A stretch of DNA of 64,000 nucleotides from positions 10,215-74,214 of the IMG/VR virus record IMGVR_UViG_3300050343_000135. One strand, 5' to 3'. The notes beneath the pieces were generated by a model that saw only the letters and a list, made by a program, of their open reading frames with translations, was not told the origin of the DNA and ran no database searches. A program made the translations under genes and the position numbers. Every line of letters begins with the position of its first letter. Within the stretch, counting starts at the first letter, position 1. Positions 38,777 through 54,871 of this stretch are shown piece by piece. This stretch comes from a virus.

Positions 38777-38805
38777 ATTATACTAAAAATGGAACCATAT
38801 GTCAA
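38777..38805 (-). promoter_or_regulatory. Late promoter heading terS and the accessory island
   Basis: TTGACA-17-TATAAT; the predicted +1 falls on the terS ATG. Confidence 0.8.
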
Positions 38806-38976
38806 GAATTATTTATCCATATGTATCATTATGATACTACACGGCGCTTTTTATATACTTGCAAATTTTTTAAAGTTGTACGTGCGGGGGAGCCTGAGCG
38901 TGGGTGTAAATGTCGGTCTATGAACCCCCCACCTATGCCGACCAAAAATTGAACAATACCCCTAGAAGGAACAGAG

Positions 38977-39048
38977 ACGCTCTCTAAGGCTCTCTAATGA
39001 AAAAGAGGTGCATAGGCATTAAAAAATAAATAACGCCTTAGAGAGCGT
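38977..39048. repeat. 14-bp inverted repeat near the putative genome end
   Basis: ACGCTCTCTAAGGC (38977) and GCCTTAGAGAGCGT (39035). Confidence 0.8.
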
Positions 39049-39050
39049 TT

Positions 39051-39079
39051 TTGCTATGATTCGCGATATATATCATAAT
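39051..39079 (+). promoter_or_regulatory. Pre-early promoter
   Basis: TTGCTA-17-CATAAT at the strand switch. Confidence 0.55.
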
Positions 39080-39355
39080 AGGTCTATCGTTAATGCGACT
39101 AAATAACGGCTAGATTCTCGGCGGGTTTATAAATATTACTGCCCAATGAGATATAAATTACTACCTTGCATATTTAGAAAACAAGATTAAACGCTGTTTT
39201 AATTGGTGAAATACTTCGGTAAAACTTACAACGATTAGCTTAGGATTTAGGCTTTATATATTCCCAATATATAGAGTCCCATGAAGCGGAACTCTCGGAA
39301 CAACGAGACAAAATAAAAATTAAAAAACTAACTAACTACATAGAGGTAAATAACT

Positions 39356-39517
39356 ATGAAAAAGAAAAAGAACTATAAATTTAAACTCTATCAGATGGTC
39401 AACGGAAAAAAGGTTAATTACGGCTCAACGCCTAGCATTAACTTTGCACGTGCTTCTGTAAAGAGACAACGAGAAAAAGGTATTGAGGCTTTTTGGATAC
39501 CTTGCATTTATAAATAA
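39356..39517 (+). CDS. Small basic pre-early protein
   Basis: GAGGT RBS; MKKKKNYKFKLYQ..., 53 aa, followed by hairpin 39529-39557. Confidence 0.55.
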   Translation: MKKKKNYKFKLYQMVNGKKVNYGSTPSINFARASVKRQREKGIEAFWIPCIYK

Positions 39518-39574
39518 ACTAACCATAAAGGCTCTTAGGCACTCGCTAAGAGCCTTAAATTAAAGGGGGGTCTT

Positions 39575-39784
39575 ATGACTCATTCAGAACTAAACGAACT
39601 CATTAGAACGGCACACACGCTGTCTGATGATGATTTACTAATGGCATTTGAGCAGGTCGGCATAATTGCTGATTTTAATACTTGCTCGTTATCAATGGAG
39701 GAATACAATCTAATTAAGGCTGTATATTTCTTACTTGATTCAATGTGCAAGAATAGAGAATTAATAACTAATATAGAGGTTTAA
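39575..39784 (+). CDS. Hypothetical pre-early protein
   Basis: 69 aa with a G-rich RBS. Confidence 0.55.
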   Translation: MTHSELNELIRTAHTLSDDDLLMAFEQVGIIADFNTCSLSMEEYNLIKAVYFLLDSMCKNRELITNIEV

Positions 39785-39845
39785 AATCTATAGGGTTAGA
39801 GTCGTTACCTAATACAAAAACGACTCATTTAATGGAGGTCATAAA

Positions 39846-40010
39846 ATGACTATTATGAAAGAAAAAAAGCCAACTCTTAAACGTCAAGAGGTGGTCGAAT
39901 TGGTACTCGATAAATTGAAAGAGCAAGGTATTGAGGATATGACAATATTTGCAACATATAAGAGATTAAATCTTAAAGGCTTGTTGCATTTTTTAGAGGT
40001 AACAAAATGA
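39846..40010 (+). CDS. Small pre-early protein
   Basis: GGAGG RBS; 54 aa, stop overlaps the next ATG. Confidence 0.6.
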   Translation: MTIMKEKKPTLKRQEVVELVLDKLKEQGIEDMTIFATYKRLNLKGLLHFLEVTK

Positions 40011-40774
40011 AGATTGAAAGAAAATTAAATGCTTTGGTATTAGATACCGAAACGTGCTTTAAATCAGAAAATGCCAATATCATTCTTGAGATTGGTTGGA
40101 CTGTTGGAAATGTACTTGATAAAACTGATATACCTACTTCGCGTAGGTATATTGTTGCTGATACTTTATTTAATCCTGAATTGCATTGGCACTCTCAAAA
40201 ATTGAGTGCCATTCATTCTGAACTATCAGATGCACCCGAGGGTTTAAGAGTAAATTATGGTAATGATATGAGGTATATAAAATACATGAAAGAAGCTTAT
40301 AGGCTGTCATGTTTAGGTGGTGAAGCATTGGGCGAAGTTGTTCTCCCCTGGGCTAGAATTCTTGACCAATTAAACAAAGATTTAGCCATGAGCGATTGCA
40401 TAGGTGCTTATAATTTCCCTTTTGATTTAAGGGCGATTCAAACAACTACCAAACGCTTTCATCATCATGCTTATAATAATATATATAAGATTCCGCATTT
40501 TTGTCTTATGCAAATGTCGGCAAATGAAATTGTTGATAGATGGTATTTCAAAAAGATAGATTCTTTAACCGAGGAGGAGAAAATATTATTTAAATCTAAA
40601 TCGGGCAAGAATCTAGGCTACTCGGCTGAAATAATGGCTAGGTATATATCTGAAGATTTAGGATATATCGAGATGCACACAGCCGAGGAGGACTCTAAGA
40701 TTGAATATGAAATCATGCAATACTATTTTAATGATAAAGAGCTAGGGATGATAAATTCTTTAGCGACTATCTAG
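40007..40774 (+). CDS. DEDDh 3'-5' exonuclease (DnaQ/RNase T superfamily)
   Basis: VLDTET, EIGW, AYNFPFD, HTAEEDS motifs. Confidence 0.85.
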   Translation: MKIERKLNALVLDTETCFKSENANIILEIGWTVGNVLDKTDIPTSRRYIVADTLFNPELHWHSQKLSAIHSELSDAPEGLRVNYGNDMRYIKYMKEAYRLSCLGGEALGEVVLPWARILDQLNKDLAMSDCIGAYNFPFDLRAIQTTTKRFHHHAYNNIYKIPHFCLMQMSANEIVDRWYFKKIDSLTEEEKILFKSKSGKNLGYSAEIMARYISEDLGYIEMHTAEEDSKIEYEIMQYYFNDKELGMINSLATI

Positions 40775-40861
40775 GAAATATGTAAAAGCGGTGTCTTGGA
40801 CAAAAATCCGAGATGGCTATAAAAACTATAAACAAAATGAACTATTTAAGGAGGTTCAAAA

Positions 40862-41440
40862 ATGAGCGATTATAAACAATTAGAACTCCCTTTCATTGTC
40901 GAACATGAAAGGGGGGTTGATTATCAATTTGATAGATACTTTCGACACATGGAAGCATTTAACAAAGATGCCGATACTGTCTTTATCTATGATTTAGATT
41001 ATACGACTTTTGAAAGACCGAAAATATTCACCCACAAACCCACCTATTCATTTATAGGTGGTTTTAAATGGGAATATAGCCTTGCATGGTATATCTTTTG
41101 GGACTGCTTCATTGTGTCTCTATTCGATAAGCCCTTACCCTTACTAAAGGATATGCAAAAACATATGCAACTCGGTAGAAAGGTTGGCATTTTCTCGGCT
41201 CGTTCGGTTAAATGGTATACGGCTTTGTGGGTAAGGTTGAAAATCGGAAAGGTTGAATTTCTAAAATTCAGACCAAAGAACGACAACACCAAAGATGATA
41301 TTTTAAAAGAGACGGTACTTGCAAGAATGTTGCGAGGAACATTCATTCTTTGCTTATGCTTCTAGAATCGTGGCATGGGATGATAGACCCGACATTATCA
41401 AGATGTATAAGCAGAATGATGTTGAGGGGTTTCTCGTATG
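40862..41440 (+). CDS. HAD-superfamily phosphatase-like protein, C-terminus shifted by an indel
   Basis: FIYDLDYT (motif I), IFSAR (motif II), RPKNDNTKDDILK as in PNKP-type HADs. Confidence 0.55.
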
Positions 41441-41695
41441 ATAGATATAACAATGACTGTTCTTTTTTGGGTTGGGGTGACTTCGGTTGCCTCGGCTCTT
41501 GCTTACATTCCAAAAGATATGCGACTTTTTGAGGTTGTTATAACTTTGGGTAATATATTAATCTTATTAACTAGCCCATTGATGCTACAATGGGAATTCA
41601 CTATCTTTTTAATGACTTTCCTTATTTGGTCGGCTCAAATTAAAATGGGTAGAGATGCTAAAACTTATGGAGGTGCTAGAAATGGCTACAAATAG
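41438..41695 (+). CDS. Small membrane protein
   Basis: Two to three hydrophobic segments. Confidence 0.55.
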   Translation: MIDITMTVLFWVGVTSVASALAYIPKDMRLFEVVITLGNILILLTSPLMLQWEFTIFLMTFLIWSAQIKMGRDAKTYGGARNGYK

Positions 41696-42129
41696 ACAAA
41701 AACAAAATAAGATAAAATTAGATAAATGGCTTTCGCAATGCTTCGGCTACAAGGTGGCAAAATGGTTCGATTTAATCCTGTTGGCTTTGGTTTCGTGGGC
41801 ATTGTTTATATTTGCAATGTGGGTGGCGTAATGAAACGATCACTTATTAAATATAGCTTATATGATCTATGCGATTTATTAGCGGAAGCAATTGCAAAAC
41901 CTAATGAGAACTGAAAAAATTGATTCATGAGATAGCTGGGGAACTTTCCCACCGAAAAACTTTTGGAGCAAAAATTCTTGTTCAATTTTGTAATGGGTAT
42001 TTTACTAATCTAAAATAATCTTTTGGGTTGGTTAGTTTTTTGTTTTCGGCGGGTTAATTTATACTAACTATTAGTGAAATTTTGCTACCCCGCCGAAGAC
42101 AAATTTTTTTGCCCGAAAGAAAAAAGCTG

Positions 42130-42148
42130 AATGAGAATCATTCGCATT
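42130..42148. promoter_or_regulatory. Fur-box-like operator
   Basis: AATGAGAATCATTCGCATT, a near-perfect 9-1-9 palindrome resembling the gammaproteobacterial Fur consensus AATGATAATnATTATCATT. Confidence 0.6.
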
Positions 42149-42153
42149 TAGAG

Positions 42154-42183
42154 TTATCCCCACTATCCACAGACTTATCCACA
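42154..42183 (+). promoter_or_regulatory. DnaA box cluster
   Basis: TTATCCCCA (42154), CTATCCACA (42163) and perfect TTATCCACA (42175) in tandem, downstream of an AT-rich tract. Confidence 0.7.
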
Positions 42184-42334
42184 GGTGAATTTTTATACAG
42201 CGTGAGCGCTTTAGCGCCGACAAGTAGTAGTATTATTATTATTTTTGTAGCCGCAGGCGCCAAAGTAGTAGTATTACTATGATGAGTAGTCTTTCTGCGA
42301 CCGCCGCCGCGAATTTGGATTAGTTCCTAAGTCT

Positions 42335-42363
42335 ATTATACCACAGCGCCCGGTAAATGTCAA
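42335..42363 (-). promoter_or_regulatory. Leftward sigma70 promoter firing into non-coding DNA
   Basis: TTGACA-17-TATAAT with extended -10; back-to-back with a rightward promoter at 42400-42427. Confidence 0.7.
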
Positions 42364-42458
42364 GAGAAACGCAGAAATTAATTTTCTTTCACAAATCCCT
42401 TGACATTTCCAATTGGCGCTGTATAATAGTATACATAATAAAGACAAAGGAGAACATT

Positions 42459-42620
42459 ATGAAAAACGAAAAAACAGAAAAAGCAAAAAGACCAAACAAA
42501 AAATACTTGCTAAAAGAAATTAGCGAACTATCTGGCAAAAGAATCGCTGAGTTAGACTCACTAGGCAGAAGCAACATTGAAACAATCGTCTGGATTCGCG
42601 ACATGGTCAAAGGAGCGTAA
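42459..42620 (+). CDS. 53-aa protein resembling the C-terminal half of A2
   Basis: Own promoter (42400-42427) and the RBS AAGGAGAACATTATG, identical to that of the A2-like gene at 43437. Confidence 0.7.
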   Translation: MKNEKTEKAKRPNKKYLLKEISELSGKRIAELDSLGRSNIETIVWIRDMVKGA

Positions 42621-42681
42621 GCAACTCTATAACTCACTGCTAGACGCAACCTGCTATTGGCACGCAGGTCGCATCGCGCCG

Positions 42682-42710
42682 ATTTTACCACACCTAAACT
42701 CGCATGTCAA
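42682..42710 (-). promoter_or_regulatory. Leftward promoter, antisense to the 53-aa ORF
   Basis: TTGACA-17-TAAAAT with extended -10. Confidence 0.65.
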
Positions 42711-42981
42711 TACTTATGCGAAATTATTTTTGCCTAAAATTTCCCGGGCTAGTCTTCCCTATACCTAAAGCATTTCCCCAAGAGTGAGTACTCACTATCA
42801 TCGCACGTCAGCAAAAAGGGATTCGCACCAATCGGGCGTTGCTTTATCCAGGGCGGCGCCGTAAGTGCGAAAACTAAGTACAAAAGTGATACTCCTGCGC
42901 CAAATTAAGTGCAAAATCTAAGTACTAGGTCTACTTGTGCGAGTTAGCGGCCGTCGCGAGACTAGTATAAGTCTTATTTAT

Positions 42982-43009
42982 ATTTTATCAGACTTTGGAA
43001 GCTTGTCAA
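42982..43009 (-). promoter_or_regulatory. Leftward promoter into the repeat module
   Basis: TTGACA-16-TAAAAT with extended -10. Confidence 0.55.
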
Positions 43010-43154
43010 GACTTATGCGAAGGTTTGCACCGATTTTGCGAGAAAGATTGTGCCAGTTTCGCGTCCGGCCCCCGAGAGTTCGCTAGCGTTAATTTATGAG
43101 GAATTTCTTTCGCAAATCTATTGACAATCTTATCAGGCTTCTATATAATATATG

Positions 43155-43360
43155 TATCTTTTGAGGGAAATGAGAAAAACCGAACACAGAGGCTAACTAT
43201 TAACAGTTAGAGAGAGTATAGGTGAGTCGCTTCAGGGGGGTGTCCAAGCATGCTAGGGGATATTAGAAATGCAAAAACGAACAAGAGCTTGGCCCGATTC
43301 ATTTCCACCAAAAGACCTATACTAAGGTATGGTTGCGAAAGGAGAACACGCAAAACATAA
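43155..43360 (+). ncRNA. Candidate structured ncRNA 1 (~200 nt)
   Basis: Promoter TTGACA-17-TATAAT (43121-43149), no credible ORF, ends pair (TCTTTTG/CAAAAGA, GGAAATGA/TCATTTCC), and a 9-bp long-range pairing 43215-23 with 43315-23. Confidence 0.55.
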
Positions 43361-43436
43361 AAAACTCCTTGACAAAACCTTATCCGCAGTATATAATAGT
43401 ATTATAAAAACAAACAAAAAGAATAAGGAGAACATT

Positions 43437-43763
43437 ATGGCATCAGCTAAAAATTACACAGAAGAAATGGTAGCTTCAATGACAGAAGCATACAAAGCCA
43501 ATCCTACAAGAGAAACAGTAGATGGCTTAGCAAGAGAATTTGGCAAGACTACAAGAAGTATCATTGCTAAACTTTCAAGAGAAGGCGTATATGTTGCTCA
43601 ACCAAGAACAACTAAATCTGGTGAAGCAATAGTAGCTAAATCTGAGTTGGTTTCTGAAGTTGCTACTATTCTAGGTGTGCAGGTTGAGGACATAGCATCT
43701 CTAGAAAAAGCAACAAAAGTCCACCTCAAAGAACTGGTGACAAGACTATCCCAAGTAGTCTAG
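43437..43763 (+). CDS. T5 A2-like DNA-binding protein
   Basis: NYTEEMV...LAREFGKTTRSIIAKLSREGVY...KSELV...IASLEKA; promoter 43369-43397; true start 43437 by RBS. Confidence 0.7.
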   Translation: MASAKNYTEEMVASMTEAYKANPTRETVDGLAREFGKTTRSIIAKLSREGVYVAQPRTTKSGEAIVAKSELVSEVATILGVQVEDIASLEKATKVHLKELVTRLSQVV

Positions 43764-43832
43764 TTGCGAACTCTGAGAACCTCGTGAAAAATAACACTTG
43801 ACACGAGGTTACCGCCAGAGTATAATATATTT

Positions 43833-44105
43833 ATAAAATTAAGAAACAGTAGAGAAGTGATAAAAGTAGGCTGACCCCCTCATTGTCACTTGGTTAAAGT
43901 GAACCTACTCTAGCTACTAAACATACCCTATCAAGTAGCAGATAGTATTTAACGGGAAAGTGGTGGGATTAAATACTGTTTTTTAGCTAGATAACTCTAG
44001 CGTGGTAAGTGTCTACGGAAGCACGCACAAAAGTGAAGTAGCAAGTTCGACTCTTGCACCACCTAGTAAAAGTTAGTACCAATCTAACATCTAGCTAAAA
44101 ACCAG
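43833..44105 (+). ncRNA. Candidate ncRNA 2 containing an anticodon-less tRNA-like domain
   Basis: Promoter 43798-43826; consecutive hairpins; D-arm, canonical T-arm GCAAG-TTCGACT-CTTGC and acceptor-like stem at 43997-44066, inside a 12-bp closing helix. Confidence 0.65.
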
Positions 44106-44167
44106 TTAAGTAGTAAATAAGTTAAAAATTTACTTGACACAAGGTTAAAAACGTAGTATAATATATA

Positions 44168-45163
44168 TTACAAAAAGGGGAAAAGTAGTTGGAAACAGGA
44201 AAAAATAAATGATTGAGCTTCGGCCAATAAATAATCCTCCAACAACTTGACCGAGTGAGGCGTCACATAAAACACTGCCGGATGCTCTTTAGACATAGAT
44301 GAGATTCACGTTAAATGTAAAAATGTCCGCTTTTGATAGTCGTTATGAGACATACCTTCCGCAGCAAGGAGAGAGTCATAACCGCATGAACTGATGCGTA
44401 AATATTTGAGTGGATACTTCCAATAAGTCCCCTGAGTACATAGTACGATTGCGAAGGACTCCAAAGTAGGGTGAGTAGCGACTAACACAACGGCAATAAG
44501 CAAAGCAGCAACGAAGCAAGAACAGTTCGGCACTTTATCGAAAGTATAAAATCGATTTGTTTTACTGCATTAATGGGCGTTACGACCTTCGGGTTTACTA
44601 AATGCAGAGGTAATTGTAAGCACAGGATATAGCCAAAATATCGGTGTAGAGTGAGGAAACCACGCTGTTCCTATCCCACGCCTCAACCGTTTCGGTAGCA
44701 GGAGTGTAGGGCAAGGACGAGAAGAAAACCAGTCTACTGCGACACGGGCGGACTAGATATTTATATCATAGCAACCAGTCAATAGTAGCAAACTCGGGCA
44801 AGGGAAAGGATGATGTTTCCTAGCCGCAGACTGCGAGAGCGAGGTGTCTTCGGGACGGGGGCAGTAGGCAACTAATTAAGAAGTGCAGACTTGGAACACT
44901 ATAAAAGCTAAGCAGCAAGAAGAACGGCAGTCGCTCTGTCAACTACTGAATAGTAGATATCTTAGTCAATAGCATTTGGACTTAAAACAGTGCATAGTAG
45001 ATAAGTGATGTGAAATAAGCAGTGCACCTTCGATTGAAGTTTGTAATATCCATCACCTCTAGCTACGCAGTGGACAGGTTCGTGAGTAATTCCAACACGA
45101 CCACTTTAAAATAAACTTACGTTCGGAGTTTAAATAGGCAGTTGAGATACTGCCTATTTTTTT
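44168..45163 (+). ncRNA. Candidate giant structured ncRNA (~1 kb)
   Basis: Consensus promoter 44134-44162, strong terminator 45132-45163, no plus-strand ORF of 60 aa or more, many nested helices and cUUCGg/GNRA loops. Confidence 0.75.
45132..45163 (+). terminator. Intrinsic terminator
   Basis: AAATAGGCAGT/ACTGCCTATTT stem plus T-run. Confidence 0.85.
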
Positions 45164-45265
45164 GTTTCGTAGAACTATATCTCAAAATTTTAAGGTCTTA
45201 AAAAATAGTTCTTGACAGACAACTTATTTCTCTGTATAATATATGTATATAAAAAGGAGACAAAG

Positions 45266-45610
45266 ATGGATTTATGGACAACAATCAAACACTTAGAAAA
45301 GGAACACAATTGCATAATATATGGCATACTTGAACCACAAGGTGTAGCAGAAGATTTATCTAGCTGGAGTAGTTTTGATGCTGAGGAGCGAACAGAAGAT
45401 TTCATAATGGACTCTTACGACATTCCAACGCAGTTAATGCTTGAAGCATTTGAGAACGCATATAACAATGTAAGTTCCGAGTACGACAACTACAACACTA
45501 TGCTAGAAGTAGTAGGCGATTACATAGTCGCAAAGTTAAAAGCAAAGCAGTGTGTATGTGGCGCAGTAGAATGCCCAGACGAGTACGCACACACAACGAG
45601 TGGGGTGTAA
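45266..45610 (+). CDS. Acidic hypothetical early protein with C-terminal CxC-x4-C
   Basis: Promoter 45212-45240; AAGGAG RBS; ATG at 45266. Confidence 0.65.
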   Translation: MDLWTTIKHLEKEHNCIIYGILEPQGVAEDLSSWSSFDAEERTEDFIMDSYDIPTQLMLEAFENAYNNVSSEYDNYNTMLEVVGDYIVAKLKAKQCVCGAVECPDEYAHTTSGV

Positions 45611-45899
45611 GATGGCAGACAAATTTACTAAGGGAGTCATGGGCGACCACAGTGCAAAAGTGATGCCTTTCCCCACCATTGACAGAGTCTCTTTTTATAG
45701 GAGCATATGGATAGAAGTATGACAGCAATAGCAGAGTTAAATGTGCAGTTGCAACAAGTACAAGACATGCTATTCAATGAAGTAGTAGAGTTCGAGACAT
45801 GCGTTGTTGAGTTACAAAACGAAATACAACGCTTGGAACGACTACTAAAAAATGAACAAACAATAAACAAGATAGGTAAAGACACATAGGAGGTGCAAC

Positions 45900-46121
45900 A
45901 TGCCAGTAAAATTTAAACCAAGTGCAAAGAAATACGTTAGAGGCGTACCGGCAAGTAAATTGCCAATGGAACACTTCTACATGCACACAATGAAAAAAGA
46001 AGAGCTATTTGAGTACATAAACGACAAAGGCCAAAACATGAAACCTAAAGTAAGACAGAAGTGCGTAAACGAACTTCAGCGTAGAGGTATCAAAATAGAA
46101 TGGGTGGAGGTGCAGTCATGA
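45900..46121 (+). CDS. Hypothetical early protein
   Basis: GGAGG RBS; 73 aa. Confidence 0.65.
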   Translation: MPVKFKPSAKKYVRGVPASKLPMEHFYMHTMKKEELFEYINDKGQNMKPKVRQKCVNELQRRGIKIEWVEVQS

Positions 46122-46261
46122 GATGGAGTGGTAAAGCGAAACATAAATCGCACAAAAAGAAAACTGCACAAGGTGATTCACATGGCAGAGTTAGCTTAAA
46201 TATGAACAAAAACAAGAAGCGTAGCTTCAAGAAATACAGGGGCAAGGCAGATGATAAATGA
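46118..46261 (+). CDS. Small basic protein ending KKYRG(QGR)
   Basis: MRWSGKAKHKSHKKKTAQGDS...KRSFKKYRG; coupled to both neighbours. Confidence 0.6.
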   Translation: MRWSGKAKHKSHKKKTAQGDSHGRVSLNMNKNKKRSFKKYRGKADDK

Positions 46262-46650
46262 TTATGCGAAATTTGTAGACAAATGTACCTCCGCTGAGAG
46301 TAGAGAAACGAGTGCTTTTCAGCAGAGAATAACAGCACTAAGCGTGATGCATCCTGATGTAGATTGGAGTAGATTAATGACTTCAGCTATAGGAATGTTA
46401 GCAGAAAGTGGAGAATTTACCGAGATTATGAAAAAAATATTTTTTCAAGGTAAAGAAATGAGTGAAGGCAACAGATATCATATGAAGCGTGAGCTAGGTG
46501 ATGTACTGTGGTACTGGATTCAAGGTTGTATTGCATCTAGGTTATACGCCTGAAGAAGTAATGAAAGAAAACATAGCAAAGCTAGAGAAGAGATATCCGA
46601 ATGGCTTTGAACAGATTCGTAGTGAAGTGCGAGAAGAAGGAGATATCTAG
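46251..46650 (+). CDS. mazG: MazG-like nucleoside triphosphate pyrophosphohydrolase (one indel)
   Basis: GMLAESGEFTEIMKK...KRELGDVLWY, then ENIAKLEKRYPNGF in a shifted frame. Confidence 0.85.
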
Positions 46651-46869
46651 TGGAAATGATAGAAAATTTATTAGCGGGTATTGGATTAATAACAGTAGTA
46701 GTAGGCATATTATTTGTCTGCGTATTTTGGGAGAACAGATAATGGCGAAAAAGAAAAATAATTTTGAAACAGAGCTAAGCAAGTACAAACACAGCTTAGA
46801 GCTTGTGAGAACAGTAGTGCCTATATTAGTACTAATTCTACAAGTGTTTATTCTAGGGAGGATTATATA

Positions 46870-47500
46870 ATGGCAAATCATGTATATTTTACAATAAGTG
46901 TAGAAGGTCTATCAGACGAACAATGGGATGAAGGAGTCAAGGTAGGGTAAAGGGAACTAGGAACGATTACGATGGAAACCCATACGAGTACGAAGATTGG
47001 GACTATATAGAGAACCAACCATTCATGGCAAGTGTAAAGAAAACATTTGATAAAGATGGAGAACTAGAAAACTCATACGACTGGTACTGTAATAATGTAG
47101 GTGCTAAGTGGTGTAACATAGAAGAAATGGATAGCTGCTTTATAACTGGTTATTCAGCTTGGAGACAACCTATAGAACTAGTAGCAAATCTAATTGAATG
47201 GTATTCAAACGAGTTTGATACCGAAGTAAGTGCAATTATGACTTATGAAGATGAGTTCAGAAACTTCCTAGGAAAGCAGTACTTTGCAGTAGAACACAAT
47301 AACCTACAGTGGACTGCATATGAAGGAGAAACCTATGAAACTGATGGAGATGAGCTAGTAGAAGAATTCAATGAGAGATTCCCTGACATAGACACAACGC
47401 AGAAGACTTTGACTGGTTTGAAGAAGTAAAGACTGGTGGCGATATAATATATCCTCATGAAGTGCTAGATGAAATTGTAGACGATTTCTGGAGTAAGGCA
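46870..47500 (+). CDS. DUF1281/YubB-like acidic protein, split by indels
   Basis: MANHV..., YDWYCNNVGAKW, SAWRQP motifs. Confidence 0.5.
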
Positions 47501-47745
47501 TGACACAGTATATAAACGAAGTAGAAAAACAAAGACTGTATCTAGCTGCTGAAGACTGGGGAAACAAAGTATCGCAGATATACTCAACAAAAGGTGGAGC
47601 AGGAGATTTAGGCTTTGGTATGGGAATGTTTGTTTACTATAACAATGGAGCAGTACATAAGCTAGAAGGAAAGAAGATAAGTATATGTCAAGTTCCGAAC
47701 AGTATAGAACAAGTCATAGACGACTATGAAAGGAAGGATGTATGA
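47500..47745 (+). CDS. Hypothetical protein
   Basis: 81 aa, coupled to its neighbours. Confidence 0.6.
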   Translation: MTQYINEVEKQRLYLAAEDWGNKVSQIYSTKGGAGDLGFGMGMFVYYNNGAVHKLEGKKISICQVPNSIEQVIDDYERKDV

Positions 47746-48044
47746 ACTACAGTAAGGAAATAACAGCGGATATAGTAAAAAGATATAGGGACGCTCCAAA
47801 CCGCCAAACAGTTGCGATTCTCGCAAAAGAACTTGGCAAGAGTGAGAAGTCCGTTATAGGAAAACTAAGCAAGGAAGGAGTATATAAACGAAGTGTTTAT
47901 GTAACGAAAGCTGGAGAAAAGCCAGTAACAAAAGCACAACTAGTGCAAGAATTAGAGGAGAAGTTAGATGCGAACTTGGAAGGGCTAGAGAAAGCTCCGA
48001 AAGAGACTCTACGCTCCTTAGTGGAGGCAATATGCGAAGAATAG
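47742..48044 (+). CDS. Second A2-like paralogue
   Basis: NYSKEIT...LAKELGKSEKSVIGKLSKEGVY...TKAGEKPVTKAQLV...GLEKA aligns along its length with 43437-43763. Confidence 0.75.
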   Translation: MNYSKEITADIVKRYRDAPNRQTVAILAKELGKSEKSVIGKLSKEGVYKRSVYVTKAGEKPVTKAQLVQELEEKLDANLEGLEKAPKETLRSLVEAICEE

Positions 48045-48303
48045 TAATGACACCAAAAGGTCTAGGAATGTGTGATAGACAGGAGTTTCGAATGCATGGG
48101 GATTTAATGTACCTAAAGGTTACGCTAAAGACTGGGAAAGTGTAGAATATTTGAACACTGAAGTAAGATTTCTAGATATGGAAGTAGAAGTTGAGGAAAT
48201 AAAAAGACGTAAAAGATTAGATGCAATTACGGGAAAGATTAATGAAAAATTTTGAATTGGGCGAAGTCTTTAGATAATTAAGACGCAGTTTTAGACAGAC
48301 ATC

Positions 48304-48334
48304 AAAGACCGATTAGCTTTTAGTCGGTCTTTTT
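48304..48334. terminator. Bidirectional terminator between convergent units
   Basis: AAAGACCGA..TCGGTCTTTTT hairpin. Confidence 0.8.
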
Positions 48335-48492
48335 CGTTGTTTGAATTAGATTGTATTTTCTCTCTCGACCTTTCACTCAGTTCATCTCAGGTCTCTTCTT
48401 CGCTTACGCTCGAAGAGCCTTGTTTTAAGATAATCGGAGTAGGTCTCGATTAGGAGAGAGAAGAATGAATTGAGTAATTATTCTAATTTATA
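48304..48492 (-). ncRNA. Candidate ~190-nt rod-shaped small RNA downstream of rpsU
   Basis: Own promoter TTGCAA-17-TAAAAT (48499-48527); long bulged hairpin capped by a GUAA tetraloop; G-U pairs work only on the minus strand. Confidence 0.6.
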
Positions 48493-48572
48493 GTATATAT
48501 TTTATCACACTTTTATCAAGATTGCAAGTTTTATTTTTGGTAGGGTCATTATAGCTACTTTCTGGGAACGTC

Positions 48573-48800
48573 TTATCTCCGAGAAAATTTATTTCTCTTA
48601 CGATAGTCAGATGAGATTTGATTGAGAGATTTAAGATGTCTCTTCCTCTGCTCGTTTTTCTTACGTTTGCGTTTCACTGTTGGTTTCTCATAGAATTCGA
48701 GTTCGCGACAGCGTTCTTTGATTTGAGCGGCCTCACATTTCTTACGAAAAATACGAATTGCCTTTTCTGTTGGCATGTTTTTACAGTATATACTAGGCAT
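48573..48800 (-). CDS. rpsU: Phage-encoded ribosomal protein bS21
   Basis: EKAIRIFRKKCE...RELEFYEKPTVKRKRKK. Confidence 0.88.
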   Translation of the reverse strand: MPSIYCKNMPTEKAIRIFRKKCEAAQIKERCRELEFYEKPTVKRKRKKNEQRKRHLKSLNQISSDYRKRNKFSRR

Positions 48801-48965
48801 GCGCTCTCCTGTTATTGAAAGTCCAGCCTCTCTTTCGTAAGTAATGTATCTGCGAATAGAGTTGACTCTCAGTAACCTGAAGTTTCTTGCAAATGTCTGT
48901 GCGTCGAATTACCTTGTAGTTTCCTTTAAATACTGCTTATCTTCTTGAGTCCATCTTTTGTTCAT
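48790..48965 (-). CDS. Small HTH/Myb-like protein, with indels
   Basis: MNKRWTQEDKQYLK...SQ..YLRKRGWTF; promoter 48972-49000. Confidence 0.5.
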
Positions 48966-49431
48966 ATCCATATTATACTAAAAATAGAACCTGTTGTCAA
49001 GTATTATTTTTGACCATGTTAAATATAGTACTTGACCTCGCGTTAGAAAAGTTGTATAATATATACATAAAAAAGGAAACACTATGAACAATAATGATTT
49101 AGCAGTACTGATATGGTTATTACTATCAAATGTGGGAACTTACTTTTTCTGTAAGTACCATTTTATACGACATACCATAGATGTTCTCGAAGATAAAGGG
49201 CTACTAATCCTCGAAGATGATGAAAAATAATTCTTGACATCAACTTCCAAATTTAGTATAATATATCAGTAGTTAGATTTATTCTAGCTATGGGATATGG
49301 GATGGTATAGTTCAATCAATAAAACAGGTTCTTTCTGCATCTTTGAACATTCAGTTTTAGAACTAGGGAATTAATGCTACCGAAAGGGGCAAACTTAACC
49401 AAGATGCAAGCTTACTGAAAAGGAGACAACA

Positions 49432-53008: not shown

Positions 53009-53281
53009 ATGGAAATAACAAATAATAAATTTAAAGAACGAGAAGCACTCCTTATACTAAAAAATCACATTTTAGCAACCTATGACCAACACTATAGTAT
53101 GAATAAAATTCAGGCAACTGAGTTTATATTCGACGCTGGCCATGGAGAAAGTTTCTGTTTAGGGAATATTATAAAGTATGCTCAAAGATATGGAAAAAAA
53201 GACGGCAAAAACAAACAAGACATTTTAAAAATATTACATTACGCAATTATGTTGCTAGGAGAAGAGATTGATAAAAAATAA
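53009..53281 (+). CDS. DUF3310-like protein
   Basis: HY...FCLGNIIKYAQRYGKK...DILKILHY. Confidence 0.7.
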   Translation: MEITNNKFKEREALLILKNHILATYDQHYSMNKIQATEFIFDAGHGESFCLGNIIKYAQRYGKKDGKNKQDILKILHYAIMLLGEEIDKK

Positions 53282-53891
53282 ATCACACGAAAATCTTACT
53301 GATGTAAATATTAGAAAAGTTATAGAGCTACTTGAACAACCTAGTCCTATAACTAAAAAAGAGGCATGCGGAATTCTGAATATTAGGTATAACACGACCA
53401 GACTTCAGAAAATTATTGAAGAATGGAAGGACACACAGGAGTTCAAGGCACGAAGAAAAGCCATGAACAAAGGCAAGCCTGCAAGTAGAGACGAAATTTC
53501 TAGCGTCGCAAAAATGTATGTAGAAGGATATAATGTATCTTCTATTGCACAGTCCATTTACCGCTCCCCCGCCTTTATAAAGAATATCATTGAGAGAATT
53601 GGAATACCAATGAAACTCGCTGATTCAGATTATGAAGCCAGAAAGAGAGCGTTACTACCCGAACAATGTGTAGCTGACACATTCCACGAGGGAGAGGTAA
53701 TATGGGCAATTAAAGTAAACTATCCAGCAAAGGTTATTAAGGAGTTACAACCTGAAGAAGCTGAGGATAGAGGGTATAAATTATACCTTTGTTATACGAT
53801 TGAATGTACAGACTTAAGTAAGACATTCTTTCCACATTTAGATATGCTGGAAAATACACTGCTCAACCTGCTTATGAGCTTGGTAGTTTAA
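53268..53891 (+). CDS. T5 D2-like protein
   Basis: TKKEACGILNIRYNTTRL...IAQSIYRSPAFIK; syntenic with T5. Confidence 0.65.
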   Translation: MIKNKSHENLTDVNIRKVIELLEQPSPITKKEACGILNIRYNTTRLQKIIEEWKDTQEFKARRKAMNKGKPASRDEISSVAKMYVEGYNVSSIAQSIYRSPAFIKNIIERIGIPMKLADSDYEARKRALLPEQCVADTFHEGEVIWAIKVNYPAKVIKELQPEEAEDRGYKLYLCYTIECTDLSKTFFPHLDMLENTLLNLLMSLVV

Positions 53892-54370: not shown

Positions 54371-54514
54371 GATGTATAAAATAGTTCTTGACAAATCTTT
54401 CAAAATTTATTATAATATATTTATATTATGAGTGATAGATATTACCAACAAATGAAGGAAGCGACAGGGTGGGCACCCGGCATGCCTGAATTTTACAAAC
54501 ACAGGAGAAAACGT

Positions 54515-54871
54515 ATGTCAACATGGACAGATGAAACAAAACAAGAAGCTATTGATATGTATGTAGAAGAAAATGCTACACCAGAGAATAGTATGGAAAT
54601 AGTTGCAGACATTGCTGAGCAACTAGGACAAACACCTAATGGAGTCAGAATGATTCTTACTAAGGCTGGCGTCTATGTCAAGAAAACACCAGCAGCCAAG
54701 GCTTCAGGTGGTTCAACAGGTGGAACAAGAGTATCAAAAGCTGACGCTCAAGATGCATTGTCATCTGCTATTAGTGACGCAGGTCATGAAGTAGACAGTT
54801 CTATAGTTGAAAAACTAACTGGTAAAGCAGCACAGTATTTTGCTGACCTTATCAACAAAATAAACGAGTAA
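54515..54871 (+). CDS. T5 D3-like DNA-binding protein (A2 superfamily)
   Basis: WTDETKQ...IAEQLGQTPNGVRMILTKAGVYVKK...KLTGKAAQYF; AGGAG RBS before 54515; an in-frame upstream ATG at 54428 follows promoter 54388-54416. Confidence 0.75.
   Translation: MSTWTDETKQEAIDMYVEENATPENSMEIVADIAEQLGQTPNGVRMILTKAGVYVKKTPAAKASGGSTGGTRVSKADAQDALSSAISDAGHEVDSSIVEKLTGKAAQYFADLINKINE

Follow-up and report, generated by a model that had tools for sequence, protein, structure and literature searches.

A putative non-coding RNA island with a tRNA mimic and a ~1-kb structured RNA in an uncultured marine T5-like phage

Four perfect consensus promoters fall within 1,042 nucleotides (nt) of the DNA of an uncultured phage, and only one of them precedes a credible gene. 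What is made from the other three? The locus occupies 43121-45166 of a 64,000-nt stretch, called the window throughout, that comprises bases 10215-74214 of one 74.2-kb viral contig (IMG/VR record IMGVR_UViG_3300050343_000135), estimated to be 75% complete. An earlier note, made from the sequence alone, had described a cassette of independently promoted structured RNAs around a gene resembling A2 of phage T5. We assign a probability of about 0.72 to the reading that the locus is a non-coding-RNA island in the early, possibly pre-early, region of a T5-like phage, with stacked promoters, an anticodon-less mimic of a transfer RNA (tRNA) as punctuation, and a large RNA, designated RNA-C, as the folded product. 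The promoters, the lack of open reading frames (ORFs), and the covarying folds documented below bear out a cassette of promoter-driven structured non-coding RNAs. The features that carry the argument are as follows.

43121-43149, + strand: promoter P1, perfect sigma-70 consensus with a 17-nt spacer (pattern scan)
43369-43397, + strand: promoter P2, perfect consensus (pattern scan)
43437-43763, + strand: gene (ATG to stop) for a 108-amino-acid (aa) protein, annotated by family as a DNA-binding protein of the A2/D5 kind, with a GGAG ribosome-binding site
43798-43826, + strand: promoter P3, perfect consensus; its -35 box lies within the 3' arm of a 9-base-pair (bp) hairpin that follows the gene
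43981-43992 paired with 44089-44100, + strand: outer 12-bp helix enclosing the mimic and a small hairpin (44073-44089), from the minimum free energy (MFE) fold
43997-44066, + strand: candidate anticodon-less tRNA mimic, a cloverleaf derived from alignment A1
44134-44162, + strand: promoter P4, perfect consensus with an A-rich tract upstream (pattern scan); the best-conserved part of the locus
44169-45166, + strand: RNA-C, a predicted structured non-coding RNA of ~1.0 kb (covariation, no coding signal)
44255-44402, + strand: conserved 5' domain of RNA-C, seven predicted helices including a pseudoknot (alignment A7)
45132-45166, + strand: intrinsic terminator, 11-bp stem and T run (hairpin site 45132-45159), the first on this strand after P1
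45212-45240, + strand: promoter P5, perfect consensus, which starts the next protein-coding operon (ATG at 45266)

Relatives were collected by searching IMG/VR with the 108-aa protein as query. More than 595 matching stretches were found, of which 80 loci, identified below by the prefix L, were taken. Counts of co-occurrence refer to the 79 loci whose sequence continues for 1.5 kb or more beyond the 3' end of the gene, many of them near-duplicates. In tests of covariation, the fraction of paired cells in an alignment was compared with the values obtained after sliding the pairing partners.

The promoters are far too many for chance. Perfect TTGACA-N16-18-TATAAT sites number 15 in the window, against a mean of 0.11 in shuffled sequences, and those at 43121, 43369, 43798, 44134, and 45212 are directed rightward, each with a spacer of 17 nt; the claim of four perfect promoters in 1 kb is thereby confirmed at the first four of these positions. 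Each has the -35 TTGACA, -10 TATAAT, and 17-nt spacing of a sigma-70 promoter, and position is conserved as well as sequence, with more than 40 loci keeping three perfect promoters in the same layout. P3, together with the ~150 nt behind it, occurs only in L001 and L002 among the relatives examined. No terminator-like site was found on the + strand between 43121 and 45131. Because no terminator lies between the promoters, and because contigs from RNA libraries bridge the units (see below), the promoters are probably additive along one co-directional array. The word "independently" in the original description is therefore only partly apt, since the four promoters are present but the units they precede are not insulated from one another.

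Only P2 leads to a protein, as had been stated. The spans behind P1, P3, and P4, of ~190, ~300, and ~1,000 nt, contain no credible ORF, and no + strand ORF of 37 aa or more was found downstream of these three promoters. Short + strand ORFs of 36 aa (43250-43360), 31 aa (44299-44394), and 30 aa (45022-45114) occur, with no Shine-Dalgarno sequence discernible by eye, and none longer than 31 aa falls within RNA-C. The substitution rate in the P2 gene is 0.40 at third codon positions vs. 0.14-0.16 at the other two. Substitutions over RNA-C are flat across the three phases, at 0.13-0.17, with no codon periodicity, and just 10-20% of its insertions and deletions are multiples of three.

In place of coding signal, RNA-C carries compensatory base changes, the combination expected of a large structured non-coding RNA. 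In alignment A7, which covers the 5' domain, 97.1% of cells are paired, vs. 28-50% after sliding, with compensatory changes in 24 of the 31 pairs. The pseudoknot helix, which crosses two others, covaries in four of its five pairs. A consensus fold of full-length RNA-C from 11 sequences has 77 pairs, 33 of them compensatory, and includes a long-range helix that joins ACUGCC at 44274-44279 to GGCAGU at 44860-44865. For the 3' block, RNAalifold returned 0 pairs on distant relatives, an alignment too poor for the purpose; exchanges such as GUGAUG/CAUCAC for GUAAUG/CAUUAC and CGUG/CACG for CAAC/GUUG can be seen there by eye. BLASTN finds two conserved blocks, 44254-44666 and 44995-45111, at ~77% identity and in the same order, followed by the next gene. 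Between conserved parts the molecule is elastic, as inserted hairpins expand the alignment from ~1,000 nt to 1,639 columns. The motifs GAUUCA...UGUCAA, UAGGGCAAG, AACC...GGUAGCA, and CCGUUGGGA recur inside the cassettes only, and on the + strand only.

A covariance model of the 5' domain, R2, identifies it in 37 loci in addition to the window. Among these, L002:1797-2640 is a diverged RNA-C (77.6 bits) without a tRNA mimic, in which the AACC...GGUAGCA module precedes a GCACUUUG..AAAGUAUAAAA hairpin. The window has these two the other way round, which suggests that modules have been shuffled. Six loci (L050, L052, L057, L065, L072, and L076) have an ORF-poor stretch of ~1.1 kb behind the mimic, after the second promoter. 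This stretch shares the 5' start of RNA-C and motifs such as GAUUCA...UGUCAA with no match to R2, and may represent a sister family of large RNA.

The cmscan search that the earlier note had called for was run with Rfam 15 (4227 families), on the whole window at gathering score and on 42300-45400 at E<=10, and no family matches the RNAs of the cassette. Nothing in the window reaches gathering score. The hits at E<=10 (a Tetrahymena snoRNA over a promoter, RyhB over the terminator, BSnc120, and BTnc231) are at chance level and were discarded. A scan of a genome collection with a 16-nt RNA-C motif gave 120 hits with no further similarity to RNA-C, which we take as chance occurrences that provide no clue to the host. 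In 18 relatives searched at gathering score, Rfam recognizes nothing except tRNA-Glu. One published catalogue of structured RNAs from IMG/VR, which may include fragments of these RNAs, is confined to lengths of 30-151 nt (Fremin & Bhatt 2023, PMC10690425). RNA-C is a new family of giant structured phage RNA.

The second element is smaller and more familiar in shape. A block at 44004-44060, ~90% identical among relatives by BLASTN, was the source of a cloverleaf alignment with the parts of a tRNA in their natural order. The acceptor pairs CUAG-C-GUGGU with ACCAC-CUAG, and its stem is 5-7 bp across the alignment. The D arm, GUGU-CUACGGAA-GCAC, has a 4-bp stem and a loop that carries G18 and G19; the variable loop, AAGUA, is 5 nt; and the T arm, GCAAG-UUCGACU-CUUGC, is canonical, with an invariant G53:C61 pair. 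Across alignment A1, the D loop CUACGGAA and the T loop UUCGACU hardly vary, if at all. What stands in the slot of the anticodon arm is, in the window, a mini hairpin, CAC-AAAA-GUG, of 3 bp and a 4-nt loop; among relatives this hairpin varies in length, with loops of 9-10 nt. Over 24 distinct sequences, 90.5% of paired cells can pair, vs. 35-58% with slid partners, and 11 of 17 pairs show compensatory changes. The covariation in homologues on which the earlier proposal was made to depend is thus present in the mimic as in RNA-C. The unconstrained MFE fold of the window sequence recovers both the cloverleaf and the outer helix, and 43833-44100 has an MFE z-score of -2.25.

Measured against a tRNA (RF00005), the mimic has the acceptor, the D arm with G18 G19, the 5-nt variable loop, a T loop of the form UUCRANY, and the G53:C61 pair; it lacks the 5-bp stem and 7-nt loop of an anticodon arm. 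Rfam does not call it a tRNA, and ARAGORN, run on the window, calls neither a tRNA nor a tmRNA there and passes over the mimic, in keeping with the prior statement that the window has no canonical tRNA gene. A covariance model, R1, scores 93.5 bits in the window; of the 75 loci it was used to search, 44 have a single match each, at 64-100 bits. In at least 45 loci, the mimic begins ~35 nt after the gene. Most relatives have it directly behind the gene without a promoter of its own; in the window and L001, P3 and ~150 nt separate the two, and in L002, P3 is present and the mimic absent. True tRNA-Glu(UUC) genes follow the mimic by ~10-30 nt in L032 (471-545), L033 (2216-2290), and L040 (577-651). 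Because a tRNA-Glu directly follows it in these three loci, the mimic occupies the position of a tRNA gene. Another tRNA-Glu(UUC) lies at L005:5506-5580.

The order of gene, tRNA mimic, and large RNA is kept, on the evidence of the collected contigs, in ~35 of 79 related marine viral loci. The mimic was found in 49 of the 79, the RNA-C 5' domain in 37, both, in the same order, in 35, and neither in 28. The synteny of the RNAs with the A2-like gene, proposed from a single contig, thus extends to many marine viral contigs.

The region is also present in seawater RNA. Of the words sampled from 43100-45300, 21-56% occur in each of 20 seawater runs, which 12 studies deposited as RNA or cDNA libraries. 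Thirteen of the 20 are on record as RNA, and their contigs were compared with 41000-48000. Contigs inside RNA-C have word depths of 77-404 in two total-RNA libraries of different studies, and RNA-C bins summed over all contigs reach 3,870, these being depths per contig, summed over relatives. On RNA-A and RNA-B, the presumed products of the spans behind P1 and P3, and on the gene, contig depth is 6-20. It is ~0 at 42638-43105 in all four runs, and ~0 beyond 45211. Contigs from four studies begin at 43174-43193, 18-37 nt past the expected start of P1 transcripts, and promoter activity is hinted at by contig start positions alone. Read-through across P2-P4 fits, because contigs bridge 43174-43966 and 43741-44225. 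The poly(A) or oligo-dT libraries X5 and X7 have almost no cover of RNA-C, which we do not read as absence. Together these data hint, with moderate strength, at transcription of the array from P1 onward and at accumulation of RNA-C. Of the discrete, abundant transcripts that mapping of metatranscriptomes was to reveal, abundance is what the deep RNA-C contigs hint at.

These observations can be joined in one scheme. Host polymerase would read the four co-directional consensus sigma-70 promoters, and transcription would add up along the array and end at the single terminator at 45132-45166. Because the promoters stack before a single terminator, RNA-C, as the last unit, would receive the most transcription. 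The products would be RNA-A, the messenger RNA of the A2-family gene, an RNA-B that contains the elbow-forming mimic closed by its long helix, and RNA-C. RNase P, RNase Z, the CCA-adding enzyme, and elbow readers recognize a tRNA by its stacked acceptor and T arm and by the elbow that its D and T loops form. The mimic would keep these determinants and lose the decoding ones. Most likely it serves as processing or stabilizing punctuation between the upstream messenger and the downstream RNAs. RNA-C may be a folded RNA in its own right, a scaffold or assembly by analogy with the phage RNAs GOLLD and ROOL.

A number of findings weigh against this scheme. The RNA-library data are contigs rather than reads, and fix neither the strand of the transcripts nor their exact ends nor any processing site. 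The MFE z-score of RNA-C (44168-45165) is -0.11, no better than shuffles, so that the evidence for its structure is comparative, not thermodynamic; that of RNA-A (43156-43345), at -0.75, is not significant either. The sequences had been called helix-rich, a description that fails for RNA-A and RNA-C by single-sequence energy and holds for the comparative folds and, at z -2.25, for 43833-44100. RNA-A and the 5' part of RNA-B are conserved in the closest relatives only. Neither the mimic nor RNA-C was found in 28 of 79 loci, and the island must therefore be viewed as accessory. The acceptor helix of the mimic, extended and closed, is not ideal for RNase P. Finally, GOLLD and ROOL are the closest analogues of RNA-C by a likeness of context only.

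The main rival to the mimic as punctuation is a role in anti-defense or host takeover, which we regard as possible, if clearly the less probable. The mimic, RNA-C, or both, made in the first minutes of infection, would be decoys that sequester some component of the host, for example a nuclease or sensor that binds tRNA, RNase P, the CCA-adding enzyme, an RNA chaperone, or the ribosomes. Very strong promoters of host type, in an early module beside A2-family genes, would suit such a role, and A2 is a pre-early gene in T5. The mimic retains the elbow and acceptor of a tRNA and cannot decode, and RNA-C contigs are deep in RNA libraries. In addition, a 167-aa protein encoded at 40862-41362 has a weak match to polynucleotide kinase (PHROG 415, E 3.5e-6) and, if real, may bring repair of RNA or tRNA into this module, a hint of host defenses that target tRNAs. 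Yet no host target has emerged; anticodon nucleases usually act on the anticodon loop, which the mimic lacks; the conserved, elaborate pseudoknots exceed the needs of a simple sponge; and the island is missing from the same 28 loci.

An RNA-protein particle, in which the RNAs assemble with the A2-family protein or with other small basic phage proteins, had also been suggested, and we consider it unlikely. The mimic's start ~35 nt behind the gene in at least 45 loci would be explained, and the phage encodes four paralogues of the protein family: besides the 108-aa protein there are one at 47742-48041 (44% identical to it), one at 54428-54868, and one within 53268-53888. The profile matches of the 108-aa protein are to phrog_323 ("D5-like regulator", 1e-7) and phrog_1725 (E 9.9e-6), the latter running almost full length, with residues 5-104 on profile positions 17-123 of 129. 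T5 A2 itself belongs to phrog_1725 (E 4.3e-52), and the motifs of the 108-aa protein occur in the same order as those of A2. Direct comparison is far less telling. BLASTP against T5 A2 is not significant, and hhalign, which gives a probability of 1.8%, aligns 72 columns in order. In contrast to the weak match of the 108-aa protein (E 1e-5), the paralogue at 54428-54868, at E 2.4e-32, is the phage's best match to PHROG 1725 and a far better A2 homologue. The label "A2/D5-family DNA-binding protein" is acceptable on these profile matches, as is the earlier "A2-like". A search of PDB sequences with the protein family profile found nothing below E 0.1. The family is annotated as DNA-binding, like T5 A2, and no RNA-binding domain was found. 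In 28 of 79 loci the gene is accompanied by neither of the two RNAs, and in L002 the mimic is missing although RNA-C is there. The RNAs tend to occur together and behind this gene, yet it can dispense with them, which argues against an obligate particle.

More doubtful still is the idea that the stretch works chiefly as DNA, for instance as an origin of replication or as a site of injection stop or packaging, which its transcripts would only activate or prime, with the folds being incidental. The locus adjoins a promoter- and repeat-rich non-coding zone at 42.0-43.1 kb and sits at the switch from leftward late to rightward early genes, and tandem strong promoters are known at the origins of phages T7 and T4. 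Such an element does not account for dozens of compensatory changes, a pseudoknot, and a tRNA-like elbow conserved at the level of RNA, nor for deep RNA-library contigs over RNA-C or the discrete terminator that closes the array. Least credible of all is decayed or misassembled coding sequence, made of pseudogenes or frameshifted genes: stop-to-stop frames in relatives reach ~110-160 codons, mostly on the minus strand, but the translations are of low complexity, no frame is common to the relatives, the transcribed strand of RNA-C has neither codon periodicity, nor indels in multiples of three beyond the fraction given above, nor an ORF over 31 aa, and independent assemblies from many samples agree.

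Two further parts of the array, the non-coding RNA-A and the 5' part of RNA-B, are plausible as RNAs but weakly supported.

43156-43345, + strand: RNA-A, a possible non-coding transcript of ~190 nt (fold; weak support)
43833-43979, + strand: 5' part of RNA-B, with predicted hairpins including AGUAUUUAA...UUAAAUACU (fold)

In RNA-A, a closing helix, UCUUUUG..GGAAAUGA with UCAUUUCC..CAAAAGA, surrounds an inner hairpin, CUAACU/AGUUAG. L001 matches the region at 95% identity; L002 has CGACCC/GGGUCG in place of the whole inner hairpin and keeps the flanking ACCGAACACA and GAGAGAGUA. The 5' part of RNA-B is conserved only in L001 (94%) and partly in L002. The slot between mimic and RNA-C is filled differently in other relatives. 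L007, L013, and L041 have small RNAs there that start with the same AUCUUUUGAG, and others have a ~70-nt element or a membrane-protein ORF. In L006 (~1495-1680), L018, L031, and L035 this is a hydrophobic ORF of ~60-75 aa (MENF...) with a ribosome-binding site, followed by a conserved CCCGUUGGGAYUGAGU element. Two more candidate RNAs, proposed at 39086 and 48304, were not upheld. The first has a promoter with only 9 matches to the 12 consensus positions, and its sequence (39086-39355) shows no conservation among relatives; the second, 48304-48332, is an ordinary terminator hairpin and T run that ends the + strand operon 45212-48044. Between that terminator and a leftward gene, a short block at 48480-48552 is 79-84% identical in ~10 otherwise diverged loci and overlaps a leftward promoter that matches 10 of 12 positions.

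The left half of the window consists of leftward structural genes, including a J-like tail-fibre protein, a major tail protein, a head protease/major-head fusion, and a small terminase. Rightward early genes make up the right half, among them NAD-dependent ligase, a DnaB-like helicase, endolysin, spanin, and MazG, with DNA polymerase at the contig end. Because of the NAD ligase, the A2/D5-family proteins, and the siphovirus tail, the phage is assigned, from gene content, as an uncultured marine T5-like siphophage. Searches of GenBank phages, a set that may not have included near relatives, gave zero matches by blastn with 42900-45260 and zero by tblastn with the 108-aa protein and a 504-aa structural protein. 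In the promoter-rich non-coding zone left of the island, a ~45-nt block at 42104-42152 is 86-97% identical in more than 10 related loci whose surroundings are not conserved. Other perfect or 11/12 consensus promoters lie at 42335-42363 (-), 42682-42710 (-), 42982-43009 (-), and 42400-42427 (+), three of the four being leftward, with no convincing ORF behind them; they may produce further non-coding transcripts or serve origin-type transcription. From a leftward late promoter (38777-38805) to a rightward promoter at 49234 is ~10.4 kb (38777-49262), close to the 10.2 kb of the T5 terminal repeat. If 38777-49262 were a collapsed terminal repeat, the RNA island would be on the first-entering DNA.

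How does the island compare with systems already described? In the clusters of T-even phages and T5, small stable RNAs are co-transcribed with tRNAs in the early region, and tRNA-shaped elements such as mascRNA can serve as punctuation for RNase P and RNase Z. The true tRNA-Glu that adjoins the mimic in some relatives recalls both. Unlike these elements, the mimic is without an anticodon arm in all of at least 45 loci, and its acceptor is closed by 6-12 further bp. It appears to be a compact new design in which elbow and acceptor are kept, the anticodon arm is gone, and the ends are closed, and it could reveal tRNA-recognizing host machinery that a phage must engage.

The mimic shares with YrlA and with Yrn1 of D. 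radiodurans a tRNA-like module whose D and T arms sit inside a longer helix that leaves no end free. Bacterial Y RNAs with a tRNA-like domain also occur in phages, and YrlA is permuted, running from T arm through a closed acceptor stem-loop to D arm, and its 5' and 3' ends pair into a Ro60-binding stem that stands in place of the anticodon stem (PMC4201824). The mimic, in contrast, has the natural order (acceptor, D, mini hairpin, variable loop, T), with an extended acceptor, and shows neither the permutation nor the Ro60-binding end stem. A neighboring Ro60 (TROVE) gene is likewise lacking, with no match at E<=1 in the 74-kb contig, 75% complete as noted.

To our knowledge, very few bacterial or phage RNAs of ~1 kb have elaborate conserved folds, and none of GOLLD, ROOL, and OLE has a settled function. 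GOLLD and ROOL are cage-forming RNAs of phages and prophages, found near tRNA islands and without known function, and the abundance of ROOL reportedly equals that of 16S rRNA (PMC12286853). RNA-C resembles them in its length of 1 kb, its many helices and pseudoknot, its place in a phage beside tRNA or tRNA-like genes, its depth in RNA libraries, and its variable modular insertions beside conserved cores. It differs in matching neither covariance model, in the window at E<=10 or in 18 relatives at gathering score, and in the position of the core, which is the 3' region in GOLLD and the 5' domain in RNA-C. As a putative new family, RNA-C is widespread in marine viral contigs, with high contig depth in ocean RNA libraries of several studies, and its genetic context of consensus early promoters, a partner tRNA mimic, and an A2-family gene offers experimental handles. 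A bolder reading, which we think rather improbable, makes RNA-C the first of a new class of giant phage RNAs that self-assemble and are transcribed from the DNA that enters the cell first. With the mimic, it would form a protein-free or protein-poor machine that captures or shields tRNAs or ribosomes during host takeover. Were that so, RNA-C and the mimic would be what the GOLLD and ROOL cages are elsewhere, in a marine setting and with a testable role tied to a stage of infection.

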